From: Leucoraja ocellata | Lineage: Eukaryota | Length of the DNA stretch: 64,000 bases | Assembly (NCBI GenBank): GCA_036785375.1 | Contig: JAWMAR010000363.1 | Coordinates: 1,116,001 to 1,180,000 of the forward strand | Direction: 5' to 3' | Shown: in pieces, positions 1,899 through 62,174 of the stretch | Position numbering within the stretch: the first letter of the stretch is position 1 | How the letters are laid out: every line of letters begins with the position of its first letter | Position numbers and translations under genes: made by a program | Notes under the pieces: generated by a model | Told to the model about the DNA's origin: nothing | Databases searched by the model: none | What the model saw: only the letters and a program-made list of their open reading frames with translations

Positions 1899-2508
1899 AC
1901 TTTGTTGAGATAGGATACTACGATCTACTCAGCAGTTCAAGCAGCATCTGTGAAGTGAGAGACAGAATTAATATTTTGGTTTAATAATCCCTCAGCTTCG
2001 TTATCAGAATAAAAATACTCATGAAATGAGGATAGACAATATTGAGTCTGAGAAGATATATTTATACCCTTTTTAGCCCGATGAAGGGTCCTGACCTGAA
2101 ACGTTATCCTTTATCTCCAGAGATGCTGCCTAACTAACCCAGCGCTTTGAGTTCATCTTTGGTATAAAGCAGCATCTGCAGTTCCGTGTTTCTACATAGA
2201 GTCCGTGAAGACAGATTATTGACTTGCAATGCCGCCCTGTATCTCTCAACATTTATGCTCACTGCTTGCTGAATATTAACATTTTCTGACTGTTAGTTTG
2301 AAATTCTTTTAGAATTGTATCCTGGGCATGTGCCGGCTATTTCCCCAGGCTAGTCCTGCTGTCAGTTGTCCATTCAGTGACAGCAACTGAGGCTGGATTG
2401 TAACAATCCTAGTGTTGTTGTGTTTCTGGCATTGACAAACGCAATGGGCGTGGGCAATCGCCATGACATAACGGTGCAGCTGGTAGAGCCACTGTTTCAC
2501 AGCATCAG

Positions 2509-2775
2509 AGGGCGGCGCAGTGGCGCAGCGGTAGAGTTGCTGCTTTACAGCGCTAGAGACACGGGTTTGATCCTGACTGCCAGTGTTGTCTGCACGGAGT
2601 TTGTACGTTCTCCCTGTGACCACGTGGATTTTCTCTGGGTGCTCCCGTTTCCTCCCACACTCCAAAGACGTGCAGGTTTGTAGGTGAACTGGCTTCTGTA
2701 AATTGCCCCCAGTGTACAGGTTGATCGCTGGTTGGCTCGGACTCGGTGGGCCGAAGGGCTAGTTACCTCATTGTA
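2509..2775 (+). mobile_element. V-SINE (HE1-like)
   Basis: GGGCGGCGCAGTGGCGCAGCGGTAGAG head, GGTTTCCTCCCACACTCCAAAGAC-type core, CR1-type tail. Confidence 0.8.
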
Positions 2776-4574
2776 AAAGTCTTAAAAAAAAACTGGGTTC
2801 AATTCTGACTTCTGGAGTTTGCATGTTCTCCCTTTGACTGCATGGGTTTCTTCCTGCCTCTAGTTTCCTCCCACAACCCAAAGACGGTGGGTTTGTAGAT
2901 TAATTGGCCTCTGAGAAATTGCCCCTCTTGTTTTGGGAGAAAATGGGATAACATAGAATTAGTGGGAACAGGTGACAATGGTTGGCATGTCTCGATGGGC
3001 CGAAGGGGCTGTTGCTAAGACCAAGCTAAAAATAAAAATACTAAACACACAGCAATGTGTCCCACTGTGTTCCCCTTAACAGGGAGACTGATAACATCAA
3101 ACCCCCGAGGCACCAGAAAGTGTTATCGCTAATATGTTGGCTAGGTATCAAGCAAAGTTTAGTTCAGAGAATAAGCATAGAAACAGGCCCTTTGACCCAC
3201 TGTCCTACCCCCATTCACATTAGTTCTGCGATATTCCACTTTCGCATCCACTCCTTACGCACCAGGGGTAATTTACAGAGGCTCTAGTTACATACTGATG
3301 GAGTGCTGCTGTATTCCCACAACTGTAGTCTTTTGGATGATGCATTCAAGTATTGACAGCATCAAAGATCTTTTTCAAGGACGAGCGAGGGATTTCTCCA
3401 GGATTGGTGTTTGTGAAAGCTTGCAGTGAGCATGTTGACAATTCATTGACTGTAAATCCCTTTGGGATTTCCTGAAGTCTTAATAGGCTATAAATAAATA
3501 TACTCTTTTTTTCAAAGACTCAGACTGATTGCAAAATCAACTACACACGCCTTCCTAAGTTCTGCTCTCCTAAGCAACCCATCACTACAATTCTCATGCA
3601 AGCTTAATGCCTAAGTCCCATCGTAAGATCCACAAGTTGGTAAATAAAAGCAACAGAGGCTGAGAAAGGATAAACTGGATCCTAACAGGTTGTTCCCTAA
3701 TGCAGTGTGGCTTTCTTTACGACTTTATTTGAAAGGACACCTGGGGGAGGATTTTCAAGTCTAATGCAAAGACATTCTAAATATGGATACACAAAAGACT
3801 GCAGATGCAGAAATCTTGAGGGGGGAAAAATATGACGTGATTGGTTTACATTCCCATCTCAATCTAGTCTAATCCTGGCCTCCATTGCTTAAGTGAGGCC
3901 ACACTTCAAAGTAGAAGACCAGCAACGCGTATTCTGCGCGGATGACTTCGAACCCAATCGCATGAACATTGAATTCTCCAATATCAGGCAAACCACCTTC
4001 CCTAGCTGCCCTCTCATCTCCCCAGTTGGTCTAATACTCCCCCCCTCTCCCCATCCCCCCCCCCCCCCCCCCCTGTTCCTTTTCCTTGCTTCTCTCCCTT
4101 ATCACCCACCCCTACCCCATCTGATCACCCTTCTACCCACAATTGGGATGATCAGCCATGATCACATTGAATGGCAGTGCTGGCTCAAAGGGCCAAATGG
4201 CCAAGTCCTGCACCTATTGTCTATGATTCCTCCCTCAGCTTCTACATTCCAATCTTCCGGCCTCTTTATCAGAACCTACCGCCTGCAGCCCTTTTGGTTT
4301 CTCCACCTATTGCCTCTAGAAGCCTCCCGACCGGAAACGTCACCTATCTATGTTCTCCGGAGATGCTGCCGGGCCTCCAGCACTTTGTGCCTTCTATTGC
4401 ATCCAAAGTTGGTCACTATCTTCACCCTTGTTTCCCCATCCCCCACCTGGCTCATCTGTAAATCAACCCCTCTTTACCTGGCTACGCCTATAACTTGCCA
4501 ACTCTTGCCCCCCCACCCCCGTTCCCCCCGCTTCTTCCAACTAGCTTTCTCCTCTCCACAGTTTTGAAGTTCAT

Positions 4575-5060
4575 TAGTAATAGGAGCAGATGTAGGCCAT
4601 TTGGCCCATCGAGTCTACTCCAACATTCAATCATGGCTGATCTATCTTTCCCTCTCAATCCGATGTACCTATCTTCTCGCCATAACCCTTGTTAATTAAG
4701 AATCTGTCGATCTCCGCCTTAAGTATCCAATCAGGGCCTCCACAGCCATCTGTGGCAATGAATTCCACTGATTCACTAAACTCTGAATAAAGAAATTCCT
4801 GCTCCTCCTTTCTAAATGTACATCCTTTAATTCTCAGACTGCACCCTCTGGTCCTAGACTCTCCCAGTGGTGGAAACATCCTCTCCGCATCCACTCTGCC
4901 CATGCCTTTCACCATTTCACAATATTTTGAGGACATGTCAGGTGCTATATCAGAGCTAGAATCAATTCCTTCCATTTCTTCCTTCCAAACATTTATTTTT
5001 CCTCTGTCCTCCATTACGCTGCCGACGCCTTTCACTATTCGGTAAGTTTCAATGAGGTCC
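4575..5060 (-). mobile_element. CR1-clade LINE 3' fragment (rearranged)
   Basis: Remnant peptides DLIETYRIVKG and RMFPPLGESRTRGCSLRIKG, plus the CR1 3' UTR. Confidence 0.75.
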
Positions 5061-5643
5061 TGACCCACAGACACTGCCTGACCCGCTGTGTTCCTCCTGC
5101 ATTTTGAGTCCGAAGAAGGGTCTCGGCGCGAAACGTCACCCATTCCTTCTCTCCAGAGATGCCGCCTGTCCCGCTGAGTTACTCCAGCTTTTTGTGTCTA
5201 TCTTCAGTTTGAAGATCCATCTGGAACCCCTCGGCATAAATGTATTTTTTTAAAACAATGCTTCATTCTGCCTGAAACTTCAAACATTATACTCAGGCAA
5301 GCAGAACATTCCCTTCTCTGAGGGATTCGAACACAGATACACAGTTTACAGATCCAGCAATGCCGAGCAAGCATCCTGCGGATCGTATTTCAGCAAGTCC
5401 CGTCTAAACATCCTAAACCACAATTTCCTGCATTAGTGTAAAATACTCTCATTAAAACCAGTGTGTAAATAGACCTGAGGAAAACAAAGGGCTTGCGGAA
5501 TGATGCCCCAGAGTGATTTGCACAGCTCAACAAATTGGTGTGAGTGGGGGAGGTGGGTGGGGAGCAATTAGAGAGAGGTACTGGGTCCTCCGGGGAGAGG
5601 GCAAAAGGTCAGGAACATTTCCTCAATGTGCTTGTATCATTCA

Positions 5644-5937: not shown

Positions 5938-6237
5938 GTCTTTAAGAATTGTGCGCAAGAATTGTGATGGTAAATAAGGAAGAGGTGCGGGCTGCTTGAC
6001 AGATATGATTAAAGAGAGGGTTGTGGAAGCCAACACAAAATAGAACATCATGGTTGATTTGACCTGGCTGCAAGAACTGAGCTCTCTAATATCCTCTGGT
6101 AGTGAATTCAGAGTTCATCTCATCAGTGAGCAAACATCTCGGCCCCCAAGTACCACCTGCCTGCACAAGTTACACAGTCGCTTTAGGATATTGTCGCCAC
6201 TTCATGTCATGTCCAGACCTGCTTCTTTCACTCACTG

Positions 6238-6390
6238 TTTTCAAGAAGGAACTGCAGATGCTGGAAAATCGAAGGTACACAAAAATGCTGGAGAAACTCA
6301 GCGGGTTTCGGCCCGAAACGTTGCCTATTTCCTTCGCTCCATAGATGCTGCTGCACCCGCTGAGTTTCTCCAGCATTTTTGTGTACCTTC
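6238..6390. mobile_element. Penelope-terminus fold-back insertion with TSD
   Basis: Inverted arms AAGGTACACAAAAATGCTGGAGAAACTCAGCGGG and CCCGCTGAGTTTCTCCAGCATTTTTGTGTACCTT; direct repeat CTTCTTTCACTCACTG at 6222-6237 and 6387-6402. Confidence 0.75.
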
Positions 6391-6990
6391 TTTCACTCAC
6401 TGACTAGTTGGAGGCAAGCAATATTTTTTTTTTAAATAAAGTGAGTCAGCTTTCAATTGGAGAATGAAAAGGGAGGCATTCATTTTAACAGCGCTTTTCA
6501 TAACCTCAGCTGGTCCCCACCAAGCCTTGCAGCCAAACAGGCACTTTTTGAAATCTGTTTGGAGATTACAGCCACCAATTTATATCCAGCAAGCACTGGC
6601 AAGTGGCAAATTACTAACGAGAAGATTATCTGCTGTGGTGACGTTGATGGTGGCCAAAGTGTGAGGGAAACCTTTGGCTCAAACTAATGGTTCATTGATG
6701 TTTTTATTGTCACAGGTGTGCAGCACAAATCCACTGTGAAGTTTATTTATGATCAACCGTGCAGTCGTGACTTGCCATACACAAGCACATCCCCAATTAG
6801 CAGGTGTACGGAATTAGTCCACCACTCCCGCGTGCAAGAGGTGCCATGTTTCACTGCCAATTTCCAAGTCCAGTCCACGCTCTAGTTGTCACGAGCTTGC
6901 CCATTCCAGGCAAGCCCCAGACTGCTGCAGGGCCTCCAGCCATTGCCTTCCTTGGACATTTACAGCAGAGACCAAATCCTTTGTCTGAAG

Positions 6991-7590
6991 ACAGGTTAAT
7001 GCAACACCTGTCCCTTTACCTCCCCCCTCAACTCCATTCAAGGACCCAAGCAGTCGTTCCAGGTGCGACAGAGGTTCACCTGTATCTCCTCAAACCTCAT
7101 CTACTGCATCCGCTGCTCTAGATGTCAGCTGATCTACATCGGTGAGACTAAGCGGAGGTTGGGAGATCGTTTCGCCGAACACCTCCGCTCAGTCCGCAAT
7201 AACCTACCTGAACTCCCGGTGGCTCAGCACTTCAACTCCCCCTCCCATTCCCCGTCCGACCTCTCTGTCCTGGATCTCCTCCACGGCCAGAGTGAGCAAC
7301 ACCGGAAATTGGAGGAACAGCACCTCAGACTTGGGGAGTCTGCATCCTGCGGGCATGAACATTGAATTCTACCAATTTTGTTAGCACTTGCTGTCTCCTC
7401 CCCTTCCTCAGCCCTCGGGCTGTCTCCTCCCATCCCTCAGCCCTCGGGCTCCTCCTCCTCCTCCTTTTCTTTCCTTCTCCCCGCCCCCCCAATCAGTCTG
7501 AAGAAGGGTTTCAGCCTGAAACGTTGCCTATTTCCTTCGCTCCATAGATACTGCTGCACCCGCTGAGTTTCTCCAGCATTTTTGTGTACC
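6991..7590 (+). mobile_element. 5'-truncated Penelope-like retroelement (GIY-YIG endonuclease end, 3' terminus with hammerhead motif)
   Basis: ORF 7063-7365 reads FTCISSNLIYCIRCSRCQLIYIGETKRRLGDRFAEH..PVAQHFN. CTGAAGA..GAAACGTT at ~7498-7525. Direct repeat CCTTTGTCTGAAG at 6978-6990 and 7589-7601. Confidence 0.88.
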
Positions 7591-9284
7591 TTTGTCTGAA
7601 GGAGTTGTCTCAACCCAAAATGTCACCTATTTCTTTTCCCCAGAGATGCTGCCGGGACCTGCTGAGTTACTCCAGCTGTTTTGTGCCTACCTACCTGAGT
7701 TTAAGTAAATCAGATAGGGGCCTGCCTGGTTCTGTGGCTTAGCATGAAATAGGCTGAAGATATTGTCTTCCTTTGCGTGTCTGATCCTTGCATCTTATTG
7801 AACTTCTCCAAATCCCCTTGTCCAACACGATACACTGTGCCTGGGGAACAGTGTGCTCTTGATGAAGGAGAATGCTGGCAGTAACAGTTTCTCCTCCGTG
7901 GAACCTCTGCAAAGGGCAGTGAGAGATGTCTGAGTTGAAACTACTAAATTAATGAACTGCCCAGGATTAATTACAGTGCTGAACCTGAGACGGTCAAACA
8001 TTAAATCAATTTGACTCGCCAGAAAACGAGCTTATTAAAATCATGTTACCATTTGCGGAGGATATTGGATTTATTAGACGAGTTTTCCAGCTTTGTTCCT
8101 GATTTGTCTCCCTTAATTTCTTATTTGCGCTTGGATTGAAATCATGAGCCAGCATCCTGAAGGAGACTTGGAACTGCTCCACATTTTAACATTTTTATTG
8201 TGGTTTTCTCCTTTGCTCTGCACTTGGCAGCCAAGGAGAACTGGGGGAGGAGTTGAGGGATGGGATAAGAGTGTCGGAGAAAAGGCGGATGGTCTCTGAT
8301 GTTATCTTCACAGAATTGGGTCATTTGGCCCACTATGTCTATCCCGTCTCTTAGCTCAAGCAGTCTAGATCTAATGCTACTGGCCCACTAGATGTCTGCT
8401 GCTTAATAAAAGTAATACGACACAAAGTGCTGGAGTTACTCCAAGGGCCCGTCAGCATTTCCAGAGGACATGGATAGATGACGTTTGGGGTCAGGACCTT
8501 TATTCAGACTGGAGAAGGGTCCCAACCCGAAACGTTAACTATCTACGTTCTCTGGAGATGCGGCCCGGATCACTGAATTACTCCAGCAGTTTGGCTCTTT
8601 AGACCTTGAGAGATACAGCGTGGAAACAGGCCCTTCGGCCCACGTGTCCACACCAATCAGCGATCACCACCTATACTAGCAGTATCCTGCACAATACGGA
8701 CAATTTTCAGGGTTTTTTTATTACTGAAGCCAATTAACCTACAAACCTGTACGTCTTTGGAGTGTGGGAGGAAACCGATTCACCTGAAGCGAGCCCACGC
8801 TATCACAGCGAGAACTCCATACAGAGAGCACCTATACCCGGGTTCAATCCTGACCTCCGCTGCTGTCTTTGTGGAGTTTGCATGTTCTACCCCTGATAGC
8901 GTCCATTCCCTCCGAGTGCACTGGTTACCTCCCACATCCAAAAGCCATGTGGGTTTTAGGTTATTTGGCCACTCTAAATTGCTCCTAGAGTGTCGACGGA
9001 CAAGTGGTGTGCACGGCTGAGTAATGGTCATTATTTCATTAAATGCTAGGAGGAGGGAAGAAACAAAGTTCTTGCATCCCTGTGGAGGCAGCGCAGATCT
9101 CTGTGCTTTATTGATGGTGACTGTGTCTCAGCCCCGAGATCAAGAGATCCCGCCTTAAACGTCCCCCATCTTTCAATTGCTGCATAAACCTATCTAATTG
9201 CTAAACAGACTTTTTTTTGGCCTGCATTGCAATCACCTTGAGCGATTCAGTGTCAGTTCTTGTTTGATTCTGCTTTATTTTTCG

Positions 9285-10920: not shown

Positions 10921-11349
10921 GAGCTTATAAATGTCAACTAATCAGTCTCTTAACACAACTGGCAGTGGTCTTTATCTCCTTACTCCCATTAATGTGAAGG
11001 GCTTCCATTTCTGCTGATACTGTAGTGAGAACACTTTTGCAGCCAAAAGATTCGACACCTGATCCCTGTCATTGAATTTGAGCTTCATCTATTCACCATC
11101 CTTCTTTAGGCTGTTAGCCAAATGCACTAAAACATAAACAGCGTGATGGAGCACAACAAGAAATATGCAGGCGGGCTTCCGTGACAAGTCGGCTAATGCA
11201 GGATTAATAAATGGTTCTCATTGTCTGCTGTTTACCACGAGCAGACAGACAGGAACAAACCCCTTCAACACCTGCCACCTGCCTTGATCCCGGCCAAGTT
11301 ACCATGAGCTCCCGGTCGCCTAAAGTCCGCCTTGGACTTTATGCGATCT

Positions 11350-11845
11350 CCCGTTTGCCAAACACTTCAACTCCCCTTCCCATTCCCACACTGACTAGGC
11401 CAGTGTCAGAGTGAGGCCACACACAAATTGGAAGAACAGCACCTCATATTTCGCTTGGGCGACACAATCCAGCAGTATGATATTGATTTCTCTAAATTCA
11501 AATAACCCTTACATCCCCCCTCACCCCCCTCTCTCTCTCTATCCCTCTCCCACCCTAGTCATCGTACTAGTTTCGCTGTTGTCCTGTTGAGTTTCACTTT
11601 CTGTATAACTCATTACCACTTAACCCACAGCAAACAATGGACCATTGTGGGCTCCACCTTTACTTGATCATTGTTGATCTTTGCATAACTTTCATTCATT
11701 TGTTCTATTTTACCGTCTATATCTCTCGTTTCCCTTTCCCCTGACTCTTAGTCTGAAGAAGGGTCTTGACCCTAAACCTCACCCACTCCTCCACTCCAGA
11801 GATGCTGCCTGTCCCGCTGAGTTACTCCCAGCATTTTGTGTCTAT
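11350..11845 (+). mobile_element. Penelope-like 3' fragment (second subfamily) ending in the hammerhead-bearing terminus
   Basis: HFNSPSHSH..KLEEQHLIFRLG remnant, 3' UTR, then GTCTGAAGAAGGGTCTTGACCC. Confidence 0.7.
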
Positions 11846-14246
11846 AAGAGGAAGGGAAGCTGACCTGGAGGAACTTGGAAATGGGTTAATTTTGCTTTGA
11901 CAGATTTGCAGCTAGTGATTTATTGTGATGATAAATGCACAATAAAAACAAGCAAGGAAGTATCTGAAGAAGCGTCCTGACCCAGAATGCTGCCTGTCCA
12001 TTCCCTGCACCCCAACAATGACAAAGTAATTTTGGCCACGATGCATTTGAGGTGAATTGGACAGTACCCTAGCTTATGGTGCAATAAATAAGATTACCGT
12101 TCCTGGGTTAACCACATTGCATGCAATTCTAACTATGGGGAAATTAATGATTTGTCGAATTATGTCAGCGATCCTCTTATCCACGAGACAGATATCAGTG
12201 TCAGTGGGTTAATTGTGCTGATCTTATTTCATGTTGCCTCGACTACACGTCAGCCGGCCTTTCTGTGGCTCAGTACACAGTGAGCCCCACCCTGAGACTG
12301 CTCCCATTAACCCTCTGGCTGAGCGACTCCACAGAAGTGCTGCCAACGGCACCTCCACAGCCTGCTCTTGAGGGTTGCACGTGCGGGGATTGCTTTGTCG
12401 GTGCCCTCGCCGTTGCCGAGAGGGTGCGGGTGGGTTTGTGGGGCAAGGGGAAAGGTGGAGACAAGCAAAGCAGCCCGGACGCAAGCAGTGTTGTAGTTAG
12501 ACACCAAAACCCGGACTGGCCGCATCTCTGGAGAGAAAGAATGGTTGACGTTTCGGGTAGAGACCCTTCTTCAGTCTGAATTATTACCTGAACTCTTTGA
12601 ATGTGTTGACTGCAGAAGACTGCATTGCTCCCAGACAGAAGATGGGGAATAGTTCTTTAACATTGAAACAGTAAATAGTACATGTTCCTGAAGATGGAAG
12701 ATCAACACAAAATGCTCAGCGGGACAGGCAGCATCTCTGGAGAGAAGGAATGGGTAACATTTCGGGTCAAGTCTGAAGAAGGGTCTCGACCCGAAATGTC
12801 ACCCAATCCTTCTCTCCAGAGATGCTGCCTGTCCCGCTAACTTACTCCAGGTTTTTGTGTCTAATCGGTTTAAACCAGCATCTGCAGTTCCTTCCTACAC
12901 AGTATTGAAGTGAGTGTATTCACAATGACGCAAGCTGGTAGAGCCACTTCCTCACAGCTGCCTCTTAACCAGAGGCCCGGGTTCCGTCCTGGTCTCGGGT
13001 GCAGTCTTTTTGGAGTTTGCATGTTTCCCCAGTGATGGGATGGGTTTCCTCCAGGTTCCCACTGCATCCCAAAGATGGTTAATTGGCCTCTGTAAATTGC
13101 TGCTATTGGGGAGTGGATGAGAAAGCAGGATAACGTCAAACTGGTGTGAATAGTGTGAATTGTTCTTCCAAAGGGCCAGTTTCCATGCTGTATCTTTCAA
13201 TCTTACAATGACTGTTCTGCCTTTCAATTTGATAACTTTCCAGTTGATGCTACCTGGATGCTATGAGCTCATGAGCCTGCATTGCTACATTTGGTGAAAT
13301 TGTGTGTTTGCACACCCTTGCTCTGCCCATTTAGATGATATTTTCCAGCTATTATCAGATCTTTTTTTCCCATATCAAATTGCAATGCACCACATCTCCT
13401 AGAGCATAAACTCATAGTAAAGTAGAGCTAAGGAACAATGCTGTGCCGAACCCAATAAGCTAATCTCACCTGCCTGCACATGAACCATATCCCTTCATTC
13501 CCTGCATAGCCATGTGCCTATCTAAAAGCTTCTTGAGCACAATCTTGTTTGCCTCGACCACTACCACCACCACCACCACCCTTTGTGTTTAAAATAAAAA
13601 CGTGCTTTCCACGTCTCCTTTAAAGTTTGTCCCTCACACCTTAATGCTAAGCTCTCTAGACGTTGACCCCGGGAACACACACAGACAGACACACAAACAC
13701 AGACAGGACCCCCCCCCCCCCCCCCCTTATCAGATCTCCCCTCAACCGCTGGTGTTCTACGGAAAACAAACTAAGTCTGAACAACCTCTCCTTGCAGCTA
13801 ACACCCTCTAGCCCGTTTACTGAAATTAATTACAACGCTTTGAGGTTGTCCGAATCACATCAGTGACCCCACACCACTCTACGAAAAGATAGAGATGGGG
13901 TTCAACTATCAGACGTGTTAACCTGCTGAACGTGCTGTTCTGAGCCCCCGAACTGCCAGTCTAACAGTACCGTGCATTATTTCATCCAGCCTAAAGACTG
14001 AAATATGGTGACTCTGTGGATATTCTTTTGCAGGGAAGGACATTGCATCTGCCGGGTCTAAGAGATTGTGGGGAGAAGGCAGGAGAATGGGGTTAGGAGG
14101 GAGAGGTAGATCAGCCATGATTGAATGGCAGAGTAGACTTGATGGGCCGAATGGCCTAATTTTGCTCCTGTAACGTATGAATTTACATTCATTTTTCTGG
14201 ATTGTGTTTTGGAGTTGTCTAAGCTCTCTGTTTGGTTTGATGACAG

Positions 14247-14321
14247 CACCAGCAGCAAGTGGTCCAGGCAATAGAGCGGGCCAAACAGGTCACCATGGCC
14301 GAGCTGAATGCCATCATTGGG
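14247..14321 (+). CDS. TLE2: Groucho/TLE corepressor internal exon (end of Q domain), [25 protein letters not shown]
   Basis: Flanked by acag| and |gtaagt; 75 nt, phase 0-0. Peptide is nearly identical to the vertebrate TLE Q-domain C-terminus. TLE family is secure; the paralogue call is tentative. Confidence 0.93.
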
Positions 14322-16051
14322 GTAAGTGGCCATCTTGTACGCGTGGTTCAGTGTGAGATGTGATGAGTGTTGTAGCCACATCTAAACCGTGACAGTCACC
14401 AAAGAACTGCAGATGCTGGGCTTCTTGTATAGAACTCGTAAAGCGCAGGAGTAACTCGGCGGATCAGGCAGCATCTGTGGAGGGAATGGACAGTCAATGT
14501 TTTGGCACGTCTTTCGAAAGTGGGAGGAAACTTGAGCACCCGTAGAAAACCCACGCAGTCGCAGGAGAACAGTTACAGTTTGCAGTTTAGTTTATTGTCA
14601 CGTGTACTGAGGTACAGTGAAAAGCTTTTGTTACGTGCTATCCAGTCAGCGGAACGACAATACATGATTACATTTGAGCCATTTACAGTGCATAGATGCA
14701 TGACAAGGGCATAACGTTTAGTGCAAGGTAAAGTCAAGGATATTCCGAGGTTTCACCAACGAGGTGGACAGTAGTTCAACACTGCTCTCTGGTTGTGGTA
14801 GGATGATTCAGAATTTACAAACTCTGTACAGACAGCACTTGTAGTCAGGATCGAACCTGGGTCCGTGGAGCTGCAAGGCAGCAACTCTACCGCGGCGCTA
14901 ATGTGCCACCCCCTTGCGAAGGACAATGTTAAACAAAGTTGTTGTCCAAGATCCCAAACTAGGTGATTTCTTTTTCTCCCCTTCTCGTTCATTAAAATGG
15001 ATGAAGCTGCTGCTCATGTGATCAGACTGTGAGCAAAATTCACTGCCACATTTCCCACGTTACAATGGATGAAAGTCAAAGATACTGCAGATGCTGGAAA
15101 TCAGAAACAAAAAATAAACAGAAAATGCTGAAATTACTCAGCAGAGCAGGCAGCATCTGCGGAAAGCAAAACAGAGCTCTCATTTCATGTGAAGAACTTT
15201 CAGGTCTGAGTGCTTCTAGCATTTTATGCTTCTCTTTCCACTCTGCCAATTGACTGCTCTTCAGAGACCACTGGTTCACTCCAAGATGGTTCAGCAATTG
15301 CAGCCTTGAAGACAAAACCTTGGCACCCATTTTGTTTCTGATCAATGACCAAAGACCCCACAGGAAAGTCGGTGTTTTCTTCTCAGGAACTCTGGGAATT
15401 GATGATGAAATGAATCATGAGGAGAATAGATGTGTGAATGCAGTGTTGAGAAGTCAAGAACTAGAGGCCACAGGTTATGGTGAGAGATTTAATATGAACC
15501 TGAAGGGTGACTCAGAAGGTGATGGGTATATTGAATAAACTGCCAGAGGAGGTAGCTGAGGAAGGTACAAGAACAGCATTTACATTTGGATAGGTACATA
15601 GATAGGAATGGGTTAGAGGGATATTGACCCAATGCTGGCAAATGGGACTAACTTGGCCTGGTCAGCATGGACGAAAGGGTCAGTATCCCTGTTGTATGAG
15701 CTACATAGACATAACATTCTGGACAACCTCAGCAGGTAAGGCAGTATCTCTGGAGAAAAACAATAGGTGATGTTTTGGGGTGAGAACCCTTCTTCAGTCA
15801 GTTCTTCGGGTCTGAAGAAGGGTCCCGACCTGAAACATCCCTATTCTTTTCCCCCAGGGGTGCTGTTTTGTGTCTATATCTTCGGTATGAACCAGCATCT
15901 GCAGTTCCTTCCTACACCGCGCGACTCTATGACTCCTCTGACATGATTGAGTGTTTTTTAAAATCTAAGCTAAACGACTTTGTGCCGATTAGTTTGTTTA
16001 CTTTGGTTTATATGTCGGTGCTACCATTGATGTCAGCACCTTTACTTACAG

Positions 16052-16247
16052 CAGCAGCAGCTTCAGCATCTGTCTCATCACGCACCTCCAATTCCGCTCA
16101 CTCCCCACCCATCAGGGTTGCAGGTAGCAGGGATTCCGTCGCTGGGCGGTGGCTCGGGGCTCCTGGCTCTCTCCAGTGCCCTTGGAGTCCATGCCCACTT
16201 GGCAATGAAGGAGGACAAGAACCATCTGGACATGGAACATCACCGAG
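16052..16247 (+). CDS. TLE2: TLE internal exon (GP domain), QQQLQHLSHHAPPIPLTPHPSGLQVAGIPSLGGGSGLLALSSALGVHAHLAMKEDKNHLDMEHHR
   Basis: Flanked by ttacag| and G|gtaaga; 196 nt, phase 0-1, in frame with the previous exon. PLTPHPSGL and GLLALSSALG are TLE GP motifs. LQxLSHHAPP matches my recollection of TLE2 better than TLE1/3/4. Confidence 0.92.
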
Positions 16248-16289
16248 GTAAGAGAGCCAGCACATATTGGGCGGTTATCCCAAACCTGT

Positions 16290-16317
16290 CTGACGAAGGG
16301 TCTCGACCCGAAACGTC
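16290..16317 (+). ncRNA. Short-stem-III type I hammerhead ribozyme motif (representative copy)
   Basis: CTGACGA-A-GGGT-CTCG-ACCC-GAAA-CG-TC: intact core, 4-bp stem II, palindromic ACGT stem III. Stem I is only ~2 bp, so activity is unproven. Confidence 0.6.
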
Positions 16318-16392
16318 ATCCATTCCTTCTCTCCAGATCTCCTGCCTGTCCCGCTGAGTTACTCCAGCTTTTTGTGCATATCTCAATAAAAT

Positions 16393-25230: not shown

Positions 25231-25237
<7 letters not shown>

Positions 25238-25242
25238 CACTT

Positions 25243-25403
25243 NNNNNNNNNNNNNNNNNNNNNNNNNNNNNNNNNNNNNNNNNNNNNNNNNNNNNNNNNN
25301 NNNNNNNNNNNNNNNNNNNNNNNNNNNNNNNNNNNNNNNNNNNNNNNNNNNNNNNNNNNNNNNNNNNNNNNNNNNNNNNNNNNNNNNNNNNNNNNNNNNN
25401 NNN
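25243..25403. other. Assembly gap (161 N)
   Basis: Run of N; true size unknown. Confidence 0.99.
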
Positions 25404-43747: not shown

Positions 43748-44165
43748 GTGAGAAGGAACGGCAGTTGCTGGTTTAAACTGAAGATTGACACAAAAAGCTG
43801 GAGTAACTCAGCGGGACAGGCAGCATCTCTGGGGAGAAGGAATGGGTGATGTTTCGGGTCGAGACCCTTCTTCAGACTTGTTAGGGATAAGGGAAACGAG
43901 AGATATAGACAGTGATGTGGAGAGATAAAGAACAATTAATGAAAGATATGCAATTATTGGCTGTTTGTAGGGTAACAACTAGAGGCTATTGTGACTAGGG
44001 TGGGGGAGGGATAGAGAGAGGGAGGGAATGCCGGGGCTATCTGAAGTGAGAGAAATCAATATTCATACCACTGGGCTGTAAGCTGTCCAACGAAATATGA
44101 GATGCTGTTCCTCCAGTTTGCATTTAGCCTCACTCTGACAACGGAGTACACCTAGGACCGAAAGG
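43748..44165 (-). mobile_element. Penelope-like 3' fragment with hammerhead-bearing terminus
   Basis: Reverse strand has a KLEEQHLIFR remnant, 3' UTR and GTCTGAAGAAGGGTCTCGACCCGAAACATC. Confidence 0.72.
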
Positions 44166-49826: not shown

Positions 49827-52691
49827 CTCCTCTTGATGGGCCGAATGGCTTAATTCTGCTCCCATCACTTATGAATCCAGCATTGTGTGTCTAAGGTAAG
49901 CCCAAATTATTCATGTCATTGATAGCAAATAAATACAGTCTAGCTTATTCCAAACTGGAAAAAAAGCAATTACGTTTGTGTTCTCCAAGAGGTGAGTAAT
50001 TATAATGATGACAGCTTGCTGCAAAATCCAGCTAACATGTGATATGTGCACCCATTGCTTCTGCAAACGTTCCCTCTATTAAATGGAGTGCACTTGTGAG
50101 ATAGTTAGTTCAGTGCAAACCACTCGTTTTAATGTATTAAATGGTAACAGATGAAAGATGATGGTTGCCAATTAAATGAGTTGTTGAAATTAGTGCATTA
50201 ACTTTTATTTTTGGCTTGGGGACAGGATTTCTGTTCCATTGAGGGTAGAGGAAGGGAGTGCAGCTTGTTTATATTTCACAGCTAGGGGGAGGGGGGAGGT
50301 TCGAGGAGAGCCCTGGACTGTGGAGAAGATCTGTTGGCAGCTTGAAGCTCAAAGTGTGGGCTGAGCACGATATGGGATCAGGTTCAGGAAGCTGTCTCGC
50401 GGTTTGGGTTTAGCATCTGCAGTGCTACTAGAAGAGATGTGAAGGCTTGGTTGACCTCAAAAGTAAATGTCACACTTTATAGTCGAAATTAGGTCAGCAA
50501 TCAGCATGGTTCTCACTTGGCAAGCATTAGATTTCAGAGACCACAGCAGAGAAACAGGCTCATTGGGCCCGCTGAGTCCGCGCCAACCAGCGATCACCCC
50601 ATGCACCATCAATATCCTAGACTCTAGACTCTAGACTCCTAAATTCAATGGGTGACTTTTCGGATCAAGTCCCTTCCTCAGTCTGAAGAAGGGTCTCGAC
50701 CCGAAACATCACCCATTCCTTCTGTCCAGAGATGCTGCCGGTCCGGCTGAGTTGCTCCAGCATTTTGTGTCTGTCTTCGGTGTAAACCGGCATCTGCAGT
50801 TCCTTCCTCCACACCAGGGACAATTTACAATCTTGCCGAAGCCAATTAATCTGCAAACCTGCACGTCTTTGGAGTGTGGGAGGAAACCGGAGCACCCGGA
50901 GAAAACCCATGCAGTCGCAGTGACAGCTTGCAAACTCAGTACAGATAGCACCCGAAATCAGTATCGAACCCGGGTCTCTGGCGCTGCAAGGCAGCAACTC
51001 TGCCACTGTGCCGTCCCAAACCATTGAACGTTCCTGATCCCGCACATCCTGGATGATTATCCTTGGCAAGATCTGTTTTAAGACATGGAGAGCAGTCATT
51101 TAGCCTAACTGGGTCAATCTATGCATAAACCTGCTGTAATATGGCAGAATATTCTCATTCACCCACCTTTCCCTTGGGTTCTTCAGAAGGTTTCAATCTA
51201 AAGCTCAGTTGAACTTCTCGGCAAATGTAAAGATTTTCAAATGGCTACAGGAAAGGGCAGCACAGTGGGGCAGCGGTGGAGCTACTGCCTCATAGCTCCA
51301 GAGACCCGAGTCTGATCCTGACTGTGGGTGCTGTCTGTGCAGAGTTTGCATGTTCTCCCTGTGACCGTATTAGTTTTCTCCGGGTGCTCCTGTTTCCTCC
51401 CACATTCTGAACACGTGCACATTTGTGGGTTAATTATTCGAGGGACAATTAATTTGAGTTGGGGTGATCACTGGTCGGTGGGCCGAAGGGCCTGGAAAAA
51501 AATATATAAAAGGATAGATTAATAAATAGTTAACTAGATAGATTTAAAAAAAATTATAATCAGGGTTTTTTCCGTCCTCTCTCTGACTCGAAGTTTCAGC
51601 TGGATGGGAAAATATGTTTGTTCAGGCAATCTCTTGGTACATTTATTCATCAAAACTGAAAGTGTGTACGTGTTGTCATTGGCTGAGCAAGGATTTAGTC
51701 AATGATGTTTTCCTTTGTCAAATAGTCTGCTGGTAATGATGCCAAAAGGGGTGTACACATGTACGCACGCACGCACACGGATGTATACACACAGACACTC
51801 TTCTTTTGGTTTGTAGTTATAACAAACTTAGTCCTTGTTTATCAAACATGGATTACTGCATTTGGGCAGTACAGTGGCGCAGTGGTAGAGTTGCTTCCTT
51901 ACAGTGCCGGAGGACCGGTTTCGATCCTGACCGGCAGTGTTGTACATACAGAGTTCGTACGTTCTCCCCGTGACACGGGTTATGGGGAGAAAGAAAGAAA
52001 ATGGGATTGGGAGGCAGAGATCAGCCATGATTGAATGGCAGAGTAGAATCGATGGGCCGAATGGCCTAAATTGTGAACTTGTGACCTGCATGATATTTGC
52101 TCCGGCATCTCCGGTTGCCGCCCGCACTCTAGGACGTATTGTCGGCGAATTAGCTTGGAAAAATTGTCCCCAGTGTGAGTGGGTCCAGCGTCAGTGTGCG
52201 GGGATCGCTGGTCGGTGCAGACTCGGCGGGCCGAAGGGCCTGTTTCCGTGCTGTATCTGAATTAAAAGCTAAACTAAATTAAATTTGCATCTTCTGTTAG
52301 CCCACTACGACCAGCTGAGTCGGCCAAGTAACACCTTAGTCAGAACAATCCTGTGACTCAGCACTTCCCTTCAACAGCCAGCTTTACTTTAGATTGGTGG
52401 TGAAATCAAAGGGAACTGAGAGAGAAGAGGACAGTTTTTTTTTTCCTTTTAGCACTAACTTGTGACTGACAGGAAAGGAATGCGGGAAGCGAAAGAAGAC
52501 AGTGATCGCAAACCAACAAAATCTGATTGTCGAAGGGAGAGAAAAAAGTCAATTTAACTTTATATTTGGACACACATGGATTTAAAATAAGTCATTAAAA
52601 TTTAATATAGCCTGAATAGATGGCTTTGCACTCATTTGTGGTTCTTTTGTCAGGAGCATTCAGATAGTGGGATAGAATAGCCAATAAGAAG

Positions 52692-53010: not shown

Positions 53011-55321
53011 ATTCTATCAAAAGAAGAAATCAAAGCCGTTAGTATTCAATAAAACATTAGATCCAACAGCAGAAACATGGATTAAGTTCATGTGATAAGA
53101 GCAGTATTAGGTCATTCGGCCCTTCAAATCTACTCCGCCATTCAATCGTGGCTGGTCTATTTCTCCCTCCTAACCCCATTCTCCTGCCTTCTCCCCATAA
53201 CCCTGACACCCGTACTAATCAAGAATCTACCAATCTCTGCCTTAAAATGATCCATTGACGGCCTACATGGCCTTCTGTGGTAATGAATTCCACTGATTCA
53301 CCAACCGCCTGACTAAAGAAATTTCTCCTCATCTTCCAAAAGGAATGTCCTTTCATTCTGAGACTATGATTGGAAAGTGGGATAACATAGGTGACAGGTG
53401 ATCGAGCATTGGCGTTGACTCAGTGGGCTGAAGGACCTGTTTCCAAGTTGTATCTCCATACTAAACTAAACTTATTTGTGGCATTAGGCACCACCTTCGT
53501 GCTTTGCAACAGATTCCAAACGTGAGGAATCTCTTCCCATCACCCACTCACTGGTACCTTCATTAGCAAGCTGTTTCTACTTCAATTGAAGAAAATATTG
53601 ACCATAAAAATTCCCCTGTGTTTAAGATAAAAAGGGTTTTTTTTGCAAGAATGTGAAGTACTTCCTACGCTTCACAGATTAACAGACGTGATGGATATCT
53701 CTTGAGTGTTGCCCTTGGGGGTTCCAATTCCCCATGTTCCATTTTCTTTGCAGACTTTCCTCGGAATTAGGGTTGCAACCAAGGCAACATAGCGGAGCTT
53801 TCATTAACACGGTTGGTGGCCTGAAATCCACTCACTCAGTCTCCTCCCCACAAATCTCCTGGATTTTTAATCATGGACCCATAGTGTCAGAGTGTCATAC
53901 AGACTGGAAACAGGCACTTTGGCCCAACTTGCCCTTGCCGACCGAGATGCCCCATAAGGTCCCATAAGGTGGGAGAGGGAGGTGTCGTAGGTTGAGTCAC
54001 GTGATGCAGGGGAAGGATTCCACAGCTATAAACACTAAACAGATACCCTGACCAAGCCATCTTGGAGGACTACATGACTCTGGAAATGGAGTAACAAGAG
54101 GTACCTCAAGGGACTGGAGTTCCTATTCTTGTCTGGGATAGTGATCAGAGTTGGAGTCACCAGGTAGGGGATAATTCAACCTTCCTTCTGGGGCTCTTTG
54201 GAATTGTTGATGAGGAAATTTGGACAATGGATCCACCTCCTGACAGCTTTGAGCTACTGTGGGAACCACCACTGTTCCCTCTGCTCACAACTTGGGGTTG
54301 GTTGTTTTGATATTGGGTCCCTTGGTATTGACGTGGAAATGTCAGACGAAATTCTCCGTGATCATGTCTCTGGATTGAGAGTTCAATCCATGTTCTCTTG
54401 ACTCTGAGGTGACCCGCATGCACCCATGCACACACATATGTGCGCAAACAAAACAATAGACACAAAATGCTGGAGTAACTCAGCAGGGCAGGCAACATCT
54501 CTGGAGAGAAGGAATGGGTGACGTTTTGTGTCGAGACCCTTCTTCAGACACGACCCAAAACGTCACCCATTCCTTTTCTCCAGAGACGCTGCCTGCCCCT
54601 CTGAGTTACTCCAGCGTTTTGTTCCTATCTTCAGTGTACACCAGCATCTGCAGTTCTTTCTTGCACAAACAAAACATCTGCCTGCAGGCCATTTCCACAC
54701 CGTGCATTCAGCAACATAATCCAGGGCCTTTTTCACCCTGGTCATCCCTCTTCTTCCCGCTCCTGTGGGGAAGAAAGCATTCTTCCTGTTGGGAAGAAAG
54801 CGGTCTTGTTGGCTTCCGGACAACCGCGTAGAAGTCGGGGCCCGGCCAGGGCCTCGCGGGTCGGAGTCCAGGTCAGCAGAGCGACCAACAGAGCCTGCGG
54901 CTGCGGTCCGGGTCGGCACCACGGAGGCGTGAGGTGGGGCGTCATCAGCGGTAAGGCCTCCGGCGTAGGGTGAAGCCTAGGGGTTCTGTCTGTATGGATT
55001 TTGTACGTTCTGCTTGTGACCGCTTGGGTTTTCTCCGGGTGCTCTGGTTTCCTCCCACACTCCAAAGACACACAGGTTTGTAGGTTAATTGACTTTTGTA
55101 CATTGTAAATTGTACCTAGTGGGTAGGATAGTGCTCGTGTACGGGGTGATCACTGGCCAGCGCGGGCTCAGTGGGCCGAAGAGCCTGTTTCTCTGATGTC
55201 TTAAAAGTCTAAAGCAAACAAAAGCTGTTCACTGAATCTCGGAACATATAATAATAAACCAATACAACTATTCAATACCAACACGGATACAAACAAAATA
55301 AAACTCACTGAAAAACAGAGC

Positions 55322-55431: not shown

Positions 55432-57364
55432 ACTCTAGGAATTGAAGAGGGAGGGTGAAGAGGAGGTGGAGGGAATGCTGGGGGATGGGGAAATGAGCCG
55501 CCCCTGTGCAGTTGGGGGCTATGCGTGAGTGGTGAACTATTGCGTTGGGGGAATGGGTGAGTGGTGGAATCTTGCGTGGGTGGGAGCAGACGGGTCTGCA
55601 CTTGGTCTAGTGAAAGACAAAACAAGTGTAGCAGGAGCAACGTTCAGGAGGCAGATCCACTTTGTTCATGGGTGCAGGATTCACTTTAGAGTTGCGTTTG
55701 AAGAGCAAAGATGTTTTGTTGCTACAGGTTGAAGAAGACATTTAGCAGGAAGAGGGAATGAAGGAGGAGTGTGTTGCAATAACTCTGCCTGACTCACTGC
55801 AGGGAAAGGCAATGTGTGCATTTCTCATCACCCCCGAGGCAAAGAACAAACATTTTAATTACACCAGTCAGATAGCAGAAATCACTTGCCACAGTTTTTT
55901 TATCTTTGATTAATATGCATTGAAACATCTGAAATAGTCGTACAAGTACTGTAACAAGTACAGTCTGCTGCTGTGAAGTTAAAACTCAATCTTGAATCCA
56001 AAATCCATCCTCTCTTCACAGTTGGTGATTACTGAAGGAATCCCGTGTACCCACCACTTTTGTCGTCAGTAAAACGTGGATGTCACCTAATCCCTAATTG
56101 TGGCTGTACAAACTCAGCTAAGACCAGGGAGAGGATGTGTGTAGGAAGGAACTGCAGATGCTGGTTTAAACTAAAGATAGATGCAAAAAGCTGGAGGAAC
56201 TCAACGAGTCAGACAGCATCTCTGGAGAAAAGAAAGAGGTGACGTTTTTCGGGTTGAGACCCTTATTCAGAGTATGAAGAAGAGTCTCGGCCGGAAACGT
56301 CACATGTTCCTTTTCTCCAGAGATGCTATCTGACCCGTTGAGTTACTCCAGCTTTTTGTGTCTAACCAGGGAGGGGATGACGGTATTCCAGAAGAGCGCC
56401 GATCTGCCAGCAGAGTTTTGGGATCAATCCGATGGATTGATTGATTGAACCGGAAACAGGCCCATTGTCCCACCGAGTCCACGCCGACCATCGATCACCC
56501 GTTCACACTAGATCTATGTTATCCCACTTCGGCACCCCCTCCCTGCCCACCAGGCAAATTTACAGAGGCCAAACCCGCACATCATTGGGATGTGGGAAGA
56601 AGCTGGAGCACCCGAGGAAATCACCCGGTCACAGAAAGTACGTGCAAACTCCACACTGACAGCATCTGAGTTCAGTATCGAGCCCAGGACTCTGGCATTG
56701 TGAGGCAGCAGCTCTATCAGCTGCACCACTGTGCCGCCCAATACATGACCATCCTCATCCAATTCCAGCTCATCAGTTCAGATATAGTTAATTAGGTGAA
56801 TTTAACTAACATATAAGGATTCAAACCTGCATGTGCAAGACAAGTAGACACAAAATGGTGGAGTAACTCAGCGGGACAGGCAACATCTCTGGACAGATGG
56901 AATGGGAGACGTTTCAGGTCGTAGATTCGGACGGAAGGAGAGGGAGCATTGAGAGAGAGAGGATGTTGCTGAGCTCTTGTTGGAGGAGAACTTCTTCAAA
57001 GTAGACATACCTTGAGGAGATTTTGCAGTGGAGCGGACAAAATGCTGAGGAAGGAACTGCAGATGCTGGTTTAAATCGACGATAGACACAAGAAGCTGGA
57101 GTAACTCAGCGGGACAGGCAGCATCTCTGGAGAGAAGGAATGACTGACGTTTCCGGTCGATAACCTTCTTCAGATTGTGCAAGACTGGTGTGATACTGTG
57201 GTTCAGAAAGGGGCAGAGAGTATTGATTAATTTCTCAGTTAAGGTGCCAGGATGGCACAAGAATGAATCAAGAAGCAAGAGTAGATACAAGGTGCTGGAG
57301 CTGCTCAGCAGATTAGGCAGCATCTCATGGATTGGTGACAAGAGCATTTAACTGCCTTTTAACG

Positions 57365-57945: not shown

Positions 57946-57947
57946 CC

Positions 57948-59529: not shown

Positions 59530-59885
59530 TCATTGAAACCTATTGATAGTGAAAGGCCTGGAGAGGGTGGATGTGGAGAGGATGTTACCAGTAGTGGGAG
59601 AGTCCAGGACCAGATACACAGCCTCAGAGTAAAAGGATATAGCTTTAGAATAGAGGAATTTCTTTAGCCGGAGAGTGGTGAATCTGTGGAATTCATTGTC
59701 ACTGATGGCTATGGAGGCCAAGGCTTTGGGCATTTTTAAAGCGGAGATTGATAGGTTCTTGATTAATAAAGGTGTCATGGGGATATGGCAGCAGAATGGG
59801 GTTGAGAGGCAAAACATAGATCTGTCATGATAGACTGGTGGAGCAATCTCGATTGGGCGAATGGCTTAATTCTGCTCCTGGTCTT
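59530..59885 (+). mobile_element. CR1-clade LINE 3' fragment
   Basis: Collinear with 10598-10920 and 62400-62780. Confidence 0.78.
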
Positions 59886-60167
59886 ATGGGTTGAGCTGAA
59901 GGCACGAGTGACATCTGTGAATGGGGAATGGTGCGAGGGGCTTTCTTTTTAATCTGAGCAAACCTTTGACTTGGAATTGCTGTAACACATAGGCTTGAAG
60001 CAGCGGTGTACAGAGGCAGGGGTCGAAACGTGCCATCTTCTCCTTCCCAGAGGCAATGAATGAATGATACTTGCATTGATGGCCATTGTGAGCATGCATT
60101 ATTTTGTGTATGTCAAGATCATCCCCTCTCCACCAGCTAGAAACAGATATAACATGGGAATTAGTAA

Positions 60168-60390
60168 AGGGCCTGCCCCACTTGGCCATTTTTTTTTTGG
60201 CGACTGCCGGCGTCATTGACTGACGTATCAGGGTCGCCGAAAGATTTTGAACATTTCAAAATCCAGCGGCGACAAAAAAAATGTTGCGACACTCGAGGAA
60301 ACACCGCGCGTCAATACGTCGTCACGCCGCGACTTCTTCGGTGACCCGGTACGCCAGTCAATGATGCCGGTAGTCGCCGAAAAAAGTAAC
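60168..60390. mobile_element. Harbinger-type MITE, one-ended
   Basis: TAA followed by AGGGCCTGCCCCACTT; interior shares GGCGACTGCCGGC..GGTCGCCGAAA..CAGCGGCGAC with 9760-9995. Confidence 0.6.
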
Positions 60391-62174
60391 ATGATAGAGC
60401 CACTGAGGCAGTATTGTATGGGTGTGAGATGGAGGAACTGAGAAGGTCAGGCAGCATCTATGGAGGGAAAGGGCAGACAATGTTTCGGATCGGGAACCTG
60501 CTTCAGAGTTGGTCTGGCTACGATGGTGACCACTCAATTACACTGGAGATTCAGTCATGGAAATTAAATAATTCAATTCAATTAATTTGTAATTTTATTG
60601 GCACATGTACCTAGGAACAGTGAAATGCATCCTGCCTGGTAGAATCATACACCAGACCTCACCTCGGCAGTATACAGGTTTCGCCACGTTTCTGGCCCCA
60701 ACAAAGTTACAGGAGTTCACAGAGCAGCCCTACCCTCTGCCTGCCACCGCACCTGGCAGCAGCCCCTCCCACCCCACCCCACCCCAGCAGGTCCCCCTTG
60801 CCGGGCCCATTGAAGTACATGAAGTACGTACATATATATGAAGTGCAATGAAGTACATATATGGATTCCATCCAAAACCACTCTGTACAGCTCATCAAAA
60901 GGGCCATTGTTTGCAGTTTTTGATGTGCATTGTTGATTGAGGAATGTTGCTGCAAACAATTGCAGTTCTTCAAAGTTGGCTGCATTTGCTTTTGACATGG
61001 TTAGTAGGACCATTGGTGTATTCATCTTTATCCATCTCATTACACTTGACCAAATACCTTGTCCAATTCACCTCGGGCTGGACACATGCCATTGGTTTTT
61101 GGCAGGCTGACATTCCTCTCAATCTCAATTTACACAGTTGTTAGAGGCTCTTCTTCTCCAAACAACCCTTGAGCTTAGAAATTGGATTGCATCTGTCTTT
61201 GAGTGTTGCACGATTTCAAATCAGTTTTACCTGGAATGGATGATAGAATAGTTTTGATGTGAAATAACACTAGAAAATTGGACCTGGCATATCTAATTCA
61301 GACCCCTTATTGGTTTTGATTTATTGTTGTCACATGGACCGAGGTACAGCGATCCAATTAGATTAGATCATACAATGGCTTGAACAGATTGAAAACATGC
61401 AAGTACACCAGGTTGTGCAAAGAGAAAAAAATACCAGGGTGCAGAGTATAGTTTTACAGCATTGTAGTGTTGCAGGTGCAGAGGAAGAAGTCCAACGTTC
61501 GCAATGAGGTAGGTTGGAAGATCGGGATTACACCCTATCGTATGGGGAGGATCATTTATTTGTCTGATGACAGATGGGAAGAAGCTATTTCTGAGCGTAG
61601 TGATACATTGCGTTCAAGATTTAGTATCTTCTGCCCAATTGGGGGGAAGATGGAATGTCTGGGGATGAAAACGATTATATTGGCTGTTTCCCCTATGCAG
61701 CACGTAGATGGAGTCATTGGATCGGGGAGGGATGGGAGGGCGAGTCTGGACTGTGTGATTAACTGGGCTGCATCCACACCTCTCTGCAATTCTTTGTGGT
61801 CTTGGGGCAGAACTGTTCCCAAAACCATGCGGTGATGTATCCCAATGTTCTATGGTGCAGCTTGTTCCATTTTGTCAGGGTCAGACTTACACAAGTCAAA
61901 TGTTGTTACTGGTCTGCCATAAATTGGACACGTCTCTGCTCCTGTGGAAGAGAGACCAGTTTCCGTGTGCATGTATGCATGGGATCTCTCTGCTTATGCA
62001 TGGTGGGCAATCTGCCACAGTGCACCATCCCACGGTGCGCAGAGTTGCTCACTCCTCATGCACAATCCCTTTTCTCCTGTCGGACTCCAAACTGCTTAAA
62101 GCACTGAGAGCGGCAATGTCAGGGAGAGCATGAAGGAAGGTCCTAGTAAGGAAGGCAAATTTAGAGAGGACTCA

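Follow-up and report, generated by a model that had tools for sequence, protein, structure and literature searches.

Short repeats in a stretch of the Leucoraja ocellata genome are tips of a Penelope-like element with a minimal hammerhead motif and probably stem from uncut RNA

Minimal hammerhead motifs were described in the pseudo-long terminal repeats (pLTRs) of metazoan Penelope-like elements (PLEs) by Cervera and De la Pena (2014, PMC4209133); the association has been known since 2014, and the motif treated here is in itself ordinary. The available accounts of endonuclease-bearing (EN+) PLE insertions describe an inverted pLTR, a one-sided tail of 30-40 bp and solo pLTRs (PMC8557442, PMC3846280), an initiator-like motif is reported in a rotifer pLTR (PMC3846280), and a CX2-5CxxC linker between reverse transcriptase (RT) and endonuclease (EN) is given as a Neptune trait that is common to Nematis too (PMC8557442). 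For PAc, a Poseidon element of Anolis carolinensis (Frangieh et al., 2024, PMC11167929), the parts of the study used here report that two internal RT starts make the tail, that both target strands are extended, that uncut RNA is the main substrate and that the hammerhead cuts only with protein. Here we analyze a stretch of 64,000 nucleotides from Leucoraja ocellata (contig JAWMAR010000363.1, positions 1,116,001 to 1,180,000; hereafter the window), in which a sequence-only reading had seen an abundant hammerhead-bearing repeat of Penelope origin inside a developmental gene.

We propose that this repeat is a Penelope pLTR tip of 100-135 bases with a minimal type I hammerhead, and that its short copies are RT by-products of uncut element RNA, which extend from an internal start to the RNA 5' end at the motif edge and decay without cutting host RNA; we put the probability of this reading as a whole at about 0.65. 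One part of it is a direct observation. The repeat is the pLTR tip of an EN+ PLE with RT and GIY-YIG domains, because the same tip flanks an RT plus GIY-YIG open reading frame (ORF) on both sides, and the Penelope origin is hence borne out by full-length elements with the tip at both ends. The ORF upstream of the window copy at 35345 was compared with the 3.44-Gb genome, where 135 of 177,564 first-look candidate places were scored, and from residue 50 on it is 94-97% identical to most of these 135. The longer genomic copies have a single ORF with RT, then a C-X4-C-X2-C linker and then GIY-YIG, and the linker is present in every long ORF that reaches it; judging from this linker of the CX2-5CxxC type, the element likely belongs to the Neptune clade. 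The ORF at genomic locus L034 matches RVT_1 with 33.5 bits (above cut-off) and GIY-YIG with an E value of 0.0014 (below cut-off), and that at L031 has the same two domains, both below cut-off. The motif lies about 110-150 bases 3' of the stop codon in the longer elements, and a search seeded with the 5'-most segment of a single long copy places the same tip upstream of the ORF N-terminus as well, where the frame opens directly after the core UGA and the first AUG follows about 55 codons later. That the pLTR is at both element ends is seen in a tandem junction at L107 and in inverted 5' copies at L031 and L040, and the copies have two kinds of 3' end, short and tailed.

The element has several further features. 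At L034:1928-2511 a 27-bp tandem repeat array occupies the N-terminal region of that copy's ORF. In the 5' tips of L107, L114, L117 and L119 the frame has no stop over the roughly 55 codons that separate stem II from the first AUG; this AUG overlaps a good splice-donor-like site, so that non-AUG initiation or splicing is possible there. The insertions at L114, L120 and L056:9755 are three separate events, all directly behind one particular position in another repeat and thus suggestive of a target preference.

Within the window, GIY-YIG ends had been placed just upstream of four copies (7497, 11751, 35345 and 43848). This holds for those at 7497 and 35345 (Pfam E values of 5e-5 and 2e-4), and at 11751 and 43848 there are only remnants of a broken C-terminus. 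The copies with coding or untranslated region (UTR) sequence are as follows.

35283..36235, minus strand: 5'-truncated subfamily A element with the end of the RT thumb, Zn-linker, GIY-YIG, 3' UTR, motif and short 3' end.
35342..35374, minus strand: its motif as found by the structural descriptor (see below), intact in its core, its ACGU palindrome and both stems (stem I of 2 bp, stem II of 4 bp).
7000..7595, plus strand: 5'-truncated subfamily A element with GIY-YIG end, UTR and motif at 7496-7528, in which the 10.1-11.1 pair has decayed to G-U.
11340..11845, plus strand: GIY-YIG C-terminus in broken form, with a UTR of subfamily B and a motif (11751-11783) that has mutations in G12 and in the palindrome.
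43754..44200, minus strand: GIY-YIG C-terminus, likewise broken, with a UTR of subfamily B, a motif (43845-43877) whose palindrome has changed from CG to CA, and a tail.
30788..31213, both strands: two UTR-bearing head-to-head arms with motifs at 30909 (minus) and 31090 (plus).
25956..26363, both strands: two head-to-head arms with UTR between them and motifs at 26058 (minus) and 26241 (plus).

Window copies were sought with an iterated profile built from natural copies and by ungapped matching to the consensus. The 33-mer from which the sequence-only reading started is the family consensus; it has no exact match in the window, 7 matches within two mismatches and 32 within eight, and at up to 10 mismatches there are 39 ungapped matches in the window versus none in each of three shuffles. 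The profile search gives 62-63 matches on both strands (1926..60508), and 42 of 63 include the core, 21 on the plus and 21 on the minus strand. The estimate of some 40 or more copies on both strands, many of them degenerate, is thus sound, and all 13 of the positions listed for it hold a copy, with an offset of 1-3 bases on the plus strand and with minus-strand positions that represent the low coordinate. The repeat is also the commonest short repeat of the window, as had been claimed: the 24 most frequent 12-mers all come from it, and searches seeded with three other window families give 36, 16 and 12 matches. A second abundant short repeat, for example at 35060-35290 (minus), has 36 window matches and a density of 229 per Mb, and we take it to be a tRNA-derived short interspersed element. 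Literature searches, judged by titles and the opening of abstracts, listed no paper on the hammerhead-bearing family in skates, which repeat libraries and most subscription papers, being unsearchable, may nevertheless catalogue.

Beyond the window, a genome sample was taken as 100 stretches of 10 kb at fixed offsets in contigs over 1.5 Mb. It contains 514 matches per Mb (mean 5.1 per 10 kb, range 0-24), tip copies make up 4.6% of the sampled DNA, and extrapolation to the 3.44-Gb genome gives about 1.8 million matches. The window has 9.8 matches per 10 kb and 11 of the 100 sampled stretches are equally dense, so that the density is genome-wide and not specific to a gene, and enrichment at the host gene was rejected as an explanation. 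Of the proposed very high density inside a developmental gene, the very high copy number and the location (in a TLE4-like gene; see below) therefore stand and the special density does not.

The consensus parses as CUGANGA, an extra base after A9, a 4-bp stem II, GAAA, a palindromic ACGU and the cleavage site. C3, U4, G5, A6, G8, A9, G12, A13, A14, A15.1-U16.1 and H17 are invariant in all six subfamily consensuses, and the extra base, G10.1-C11.1 and the palindromic 15.2-16.2 pair are all present in the consensus, which at this level fits the published minimal type I hammerhead, as the sequence-only reading had it. A strict, structure-only descriptor, for which core, stem II and palindrome must all be intact, is satisfied by 7 copies of the window and by 38 in the 1-Mb sample, with 0, 0, 1, 0 and 0 in shuffles; this extrapolates to about 130,000 intact motifs genome-wide. 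No other hammerhead family was met, as all 28 descriptor matches in 664 kb are this repeat. In an Rfam scan of the window, none of the 16 matches with E values up to 1 is a hammerhead family, which says little because the motif is too short for the Rfam hammerhead models.

If such motifs worked after insertion, neighboring sense copies could form dimers and cut the host pre-mRNA. The consensus retains 11 of 11 core bases, all five subfamily changes inside the motif are compatible with the fold (loop, wobble or H17), and four intact sense copies lie in the TLE4-like gene, in keeping with that possibility. Against it, stem I is 2 bp in 29 of the 45 descriptor-passing copies from window and sample and at least 3 bp in only 5, in accord with the short stem I already noted as a caveat. 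The predicted stem I pairing probability is 0 in five scored monomer contexts (stem II, 0 to 0.87), the ACGU duplex is predicted to be worth only -1.7 kcal/mol, and palindromic pairs are predicted to fold into long hairpins. There is no strand bias, and stem II does not covary: among 401 matches there is no excess of double changes (Fisher p 0.37-0.70), and subfamily changes in stems are one-sided wobbles only. The proposed covariation test thus came out negative, as is to be expected if copies decay once inserted. Even in dimeric form, longer-stemmed minimal hammerheads in the literature cleave weakly, at least in the available text of PMC4209133, and neither copy ends (577 matches) nor RNA ends (one run from a related species) are in excess at the cut site. 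A working ribozyme is hence not supported, and we regard host-RNA cleavage by these copies as very improbable; the inserted copies, to judge from their sequences, are mostly decayed and likely do not cut the host transcript.

Constraint on the core was assessed with 205 near-complete copies of the 577, clustered on the flank alone into six groups. Differences among the subfamily consensuses fall on none of the 11 positions in the core and on 19 of the 62 in the flank (p 0.027 one-sided, 0.056 two-sided). The comparison of core and flank that had been suggested therefore comes out borderline and only weakly favors core constraint in the master elements, given that the six groups are not independent of one another and that other blocks of the flank are just as invariant. 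In the individual copies, 135 of 2046 non-CpG core cells differ from their own consensus versus 1160 of 12032 in the flanks (p 6e-6); two free core positions are equally low (30 of 409 differ), however, and the copy filter favored intact 5' ends. G12, which lies in a CpG, is changed in 40 of the 205 copies, a CpG decay that also speaks against active copies. We read the lower core decay as neutral decay plus filter bias.

The ends of the copies are more informative as to their origin. The 5'-end rates were counted per base over copies at risk, with the edge width set at 15 nt, and amount to 0.002-0.004 downstream, 0.0041 at the cut site (6/293), 0.019 in the 5' half of the core and about 0.04 at the front edge of the motif (122/196), which is about a tenfold pile-up. 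These 122 of the 196 copies that reach the first bases of the motif have unique upstream sequence, and 74 continue into shared upstream sequence. Among the best-scoring copies, 43 of 72 begin at the edge and upstream bases are at background beyond about -4. Target-site duplications of 10-20 bp flank 24 of 157 solo copies versus 1 of 470 mismatched-pair controls; of the 24 junctions, 12 fall between -3 and +6 relative to the edge and the cut site has none, and several junctions further upstream hold short re-copied bits of the motif start. Full-length elements behave similarly, in that, of 6 independent loci that extend as far as the 5' tip, 3 start no more than about 7 nt from the edge. Templates cut by the ribozyme would begin copies at the cut site, and these were rejected as a source since 5' ends are not in excess there (equal to the rate just downstream). 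Copies begin at the edge instead, and hence were likely copied from uncut RNA. The solo copies of the window include the following.

16288..16385, plus strand: solo copy with intact motif that begins at the motif front edge, 40 nt into the intron after the second host exon; contigs of two related DNA runs reach into it.
12494..12578, minus strand: solo copy that passes the descriptor, without stem I.
44923..45045, minus strand: solo copy with tail that passes the descriptor, without stem I.
5106..5225, plus strand: copy with mutated U4, directly behind a partial copy.

The edge might instead be a splice junction, in which the pyrimidine tract and CAG serve as a 3' splice site, a spliced or branch-cleaved RNA sets the 5' end, and splicing could lengthen stem I. 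Subfamilies A, B and C do have a pyrimidine tract with YAG ahead of the core, the bases upstream of young solo copies (A 31 and G 33 of 43) are compatible with an exon end too, and a D. virilis intron ends at helix I according to the available text of PMC4209133 and PMC2377424. Several target-site duplications abut the edge with no exon between, however, no joint onto the AG is present among the best 15 of 91 RNA joints in a related species, loose RNA ends at the AG are heterogeneous (agreement 0.32-0.38), and in subfamily B the branch-like motif follows the tract and precedes the AG by only 3-9 nt. We therefore consider a splice origin of the edge quite unlikely. The RNA itself comes from a single raw run of a related species, of which about 6% was sampled (11,448 reads); it has no start or end peak on the tip, and its reads match the tip in both orientations, which is weak evidence either way.

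In the reading that we prefer, element RNA would begin near the AG just before the core, which would leave stem I with only 2-3 bp. The TCAGT at the motif edge fits the initiator consensus, and a match to the downstream-promoter-element consensus at +29 to +32 from the putative start (4 of 5 bases, by eye) is given no weight. Reverse transcription would start about 100 or 135 nt downstream, as it does in vitro for the anole element, and with the RNA start at the edge the cDNA on a 5' tip would run off after 100-135 nt and yield a solo copy. Where both target strands were primed, one per start site, the two cDNAs would join head to head into a palindrome. The motif likely mattered in master elements, through weak, dimer- or protein-assisted cleavage or through a binding or promoter role, and is likely without a role in inserted copies.

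Head-to-head palindromes are indeed a major form of the repeat, one absent from the sequence-only reading. In all, 204 of the 577 matches form 102 head-to-head pairs, and the window has 12 such palindromes. A tail is on one arm in 79 of the 102 pairs, on both in 2 and on neither in 21, versus 49, 17 and 36 expected (p 1e-9), so that the two ends of an insertion appear to be primed at different sites. Target-site duplications flank 26 of 79 testable pairs versus 0 of 312 controls, and 18 of 22 pairs have both arms from one subfamily, versus 0.33 expected. Immediately upstream, a direct copy is found for 39 of 577 matches and an inverted copy for 185 of 577. In the window's two motif-bearing direct pairs one partner is partial or mutated. 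On these counts the copies do not have the head-to-tail arrangement of retrozymes, with a complete motif per unit. The data make it likely that uncut RNA gave rise to the inserted copies and that, within one insertion, each end was primed at a site of its own, in agreement with the single in vitro study. The palindromes of the window are as follows, all on both strands.

6247..6391: head-to-head palindrome with 16-bp target-site duplication and one tailed arm.
54453..54658: head-to-head palindrome with 15-bp target-site duplication and one tailed arm.
56147..56367: head-to-head palindrome with 15-bp target-site duplication and one tailed arm.
12688..12892: head-to-head palindrome predicted to form a single long hairpin of -119 kcal/mol with stem II buried.
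21321..21521: head-to-head palindrome joined at a CAG-W-CTG near-palindrome, with a predicted hairpin of -163 kcal/mol.
28998..29215: head-to-head palindrome whose plus arm passes the descriptor with a stem I of 1 bp.
37859..38012: head-to-head palindrome with a short minus arm, whose plus arm passes the descriptor with a stem II of 3 bp.
15703..15909: head-to-head palindrome.
50647..50804: head-to-head palindrome with a short minus arm.
8399..8599: head-to-head palindrome of an older subfamily.
25789..25930: head-to-head palindrome with short arms.
30038..30158: head-to-head palindrome without most of the core.

These pairs also bear on the inference of the sequence-only reading that the tip was amplified as a short non-autonomous element, with an internal promoter at the motif edge, mobilization in trans and masters of its own. 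Its fixed 5' edge, short length and target-site duplications would suit such an element, tips far outnumber copies with UTR or ORF sequence (only 74 of the 196 edge-covering copies continue into shared upstream sequence), one junction is common to 13 of 102 palindromes, and pLTR sequences suffice for mobilization in trans in a rotifer, as the available text of PMC3846280 has it. On the other hand, full-length copies begin at the same edge, solo copies come from several subfamilies, one-sided tails mark fresh priming of two ends, and there are 92 junction types among the 102 pairs; the recurring class (n=13) uses the built-in CAG-W-CTG near-palindrome and occurs in both subfamilies A and B. Repeated close relatives on the same contigs, moreover, share flanks (one query), so that these tips would be passengers of larger duplications, and local spreading of palindromes was rejected on the same grounds. 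A separately amplified element is thus not needed and we hold it to be improbable, although it can be partly true alongside copying from uncut RNA. One solo tip sits in a larger repeated segment with at least nine copies (L138, L139, L141-L143, L147, L151, L153, L154), several of them on the same contigs.

Several points weigh against by-products of uncut RNA as the source of the short copies. With a pyrimidine tract ahead of it, the CAG in front of the core suits a splice acceptor equally; the edge count is inflated by any copies with upstream UTR from an unsampled subfamily, and local alignment trims old copy ends; no more than 24 of the 157 solo copies have a target-site duplication; the junction that recurs in 13 palindromes could stem from re-amplification too; the non-CpG core decays less than the flanks, which may reflect weak selection on inserted copies; and the element RNA's 5' end was not seen in the one related-species run at its sampling of about 6%.

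The host gene is TLE4-like, with its best matches in skates, and the developmental location that had been claimed is confirmed by the repeat copies in its introns. Two exons are in the window.

14245..14320, plus strand: host-gene exon (tblastn, 100% over 19 amino acids), joined to the next exon in one RNA-type contig.
16054..16247, plus strand: host-gene exon; the next exon was found outside the window at C363:1193013 (C363 being the contig).

Since the next exon lies beyond the window, 16248-64000 is likely a single intron, of which 161 N at 25243-25403 are unreadable. Copies are not depleted on the sense strand of the gene (21 versus 21 core-covering copies), and no sign of an effect of the repeat on the gene was seen. 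A second copy of part of the gene, 96-99% identical, is about 161 kb upstream with five exon matches (amino acids 92-395), the duplicated stretch being C363 ~968000-1054000 versus 1128000-1215000; it represents either a tandem duplication or an uncollapsed haplotype. A second TLE-family gene, at C363:1245000-1325000 on the minus strand, is downstream of the TLE4-like gene and tail to tail with it. The intron also contains, on the sense strand at 46895-46968, a weak match to the CPEB3 ribozyme model (hepatitis delta virus-like; 26.5 bits versus a gathering score of 35, window-wide E 0.008), in which P1, P3, the loop and a possible P2 can be discerned by eye and which is a single copy in the window plus the 1-Mb sample. 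Elsewhere in the window, 36585-37454 and 57918-58900 are two related GC-rich segments with similar open frames and are likely copies of another mobile element.

The value of this repeat resides in its scale and in the geometry of its ends, which provide a record of how Penelope elements insert and bear on two points that the cited papers leave open, the role of the hammerhead and the formation of inverted ends. A wider interpretation, which we advance tentatively and at somewhat less than even odds, is that the ~1.8 million tips are a fossil record of Penelope replication, in which an initiator on the hammerhead's first bases shortens stem I to 2 bp and disables cleavage of the 5' copy, where internal priming gives a strong-stop-like cDNA of 100-135 nt that inserts alone or, if both target strands are primed, each at another start site, as a palindrome. 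If true, the hammerhead would be a start-site and protein-binding module more than a nuclease.

The motif resembles the hammerheads of PMC4209133, as far as that account is available, in its CUGANGA, extra nucleotide before stem II, G10.1-C11.1, GAAA, palindromic C-G at 15.2-16.2 and UH site, and also in its pLTR location and in the prevalence of dispersed single copies of truncated elements with some opposite-strand pairs. It differs in that stem I is 2 bp versus mostly 3-5 bp (2 bp in a few, e.g., D. virilis) and stem II 4 bp versus often 5-8, and in numbers, as ~130,000 intact motifs (extrapolated) compare with ~4,000 in coelacanth and ~9,000 in Xenopus; a search of supplement file 2 of that paper found neither shark nor skate, file 1 being unsearchable. 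With PAc the element shares a motif at the pLTR-ORF junction, an open frame from stem II on, a tail defined by two 3' ends, insertions from uncut RNA and no RNA-seq ends at the cut site, but it is of another clade, having the Zn-linker, and its first AUG is about 55 codons after the core (PMC11167929). The PAc account, in its available parts, describes neither a pile-up of 5' ends at the motif edge nor a mass of 100-250-bp insertions. Head-to-head inverted pLTRs, a one-sided tail, target-site duplications, microhomology at 5' junctions and an initiator-like pLTR motif are all found in other EN+ PLE insertions, in the portions of PMC8557442 and PMC3846280 considered here, from which the present family differs in that most insertions are the tip only and occupy ~4.6% of the sampled DNA. 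Finally, the non-LTR retrozymes of Li et al. (2026, bioRxiv 10.64898/2026.07.22.740005), one of them chondrichthyan, are likewise non-coding, PLE-derived, hammerhead-bearing vertebrate repeats; as far as that preprint is available, they form head-to-tail arrays with a motif in each unit, whereas the repeats described here are dispersed solos and head-to-head pairs with ends of the PLE type.

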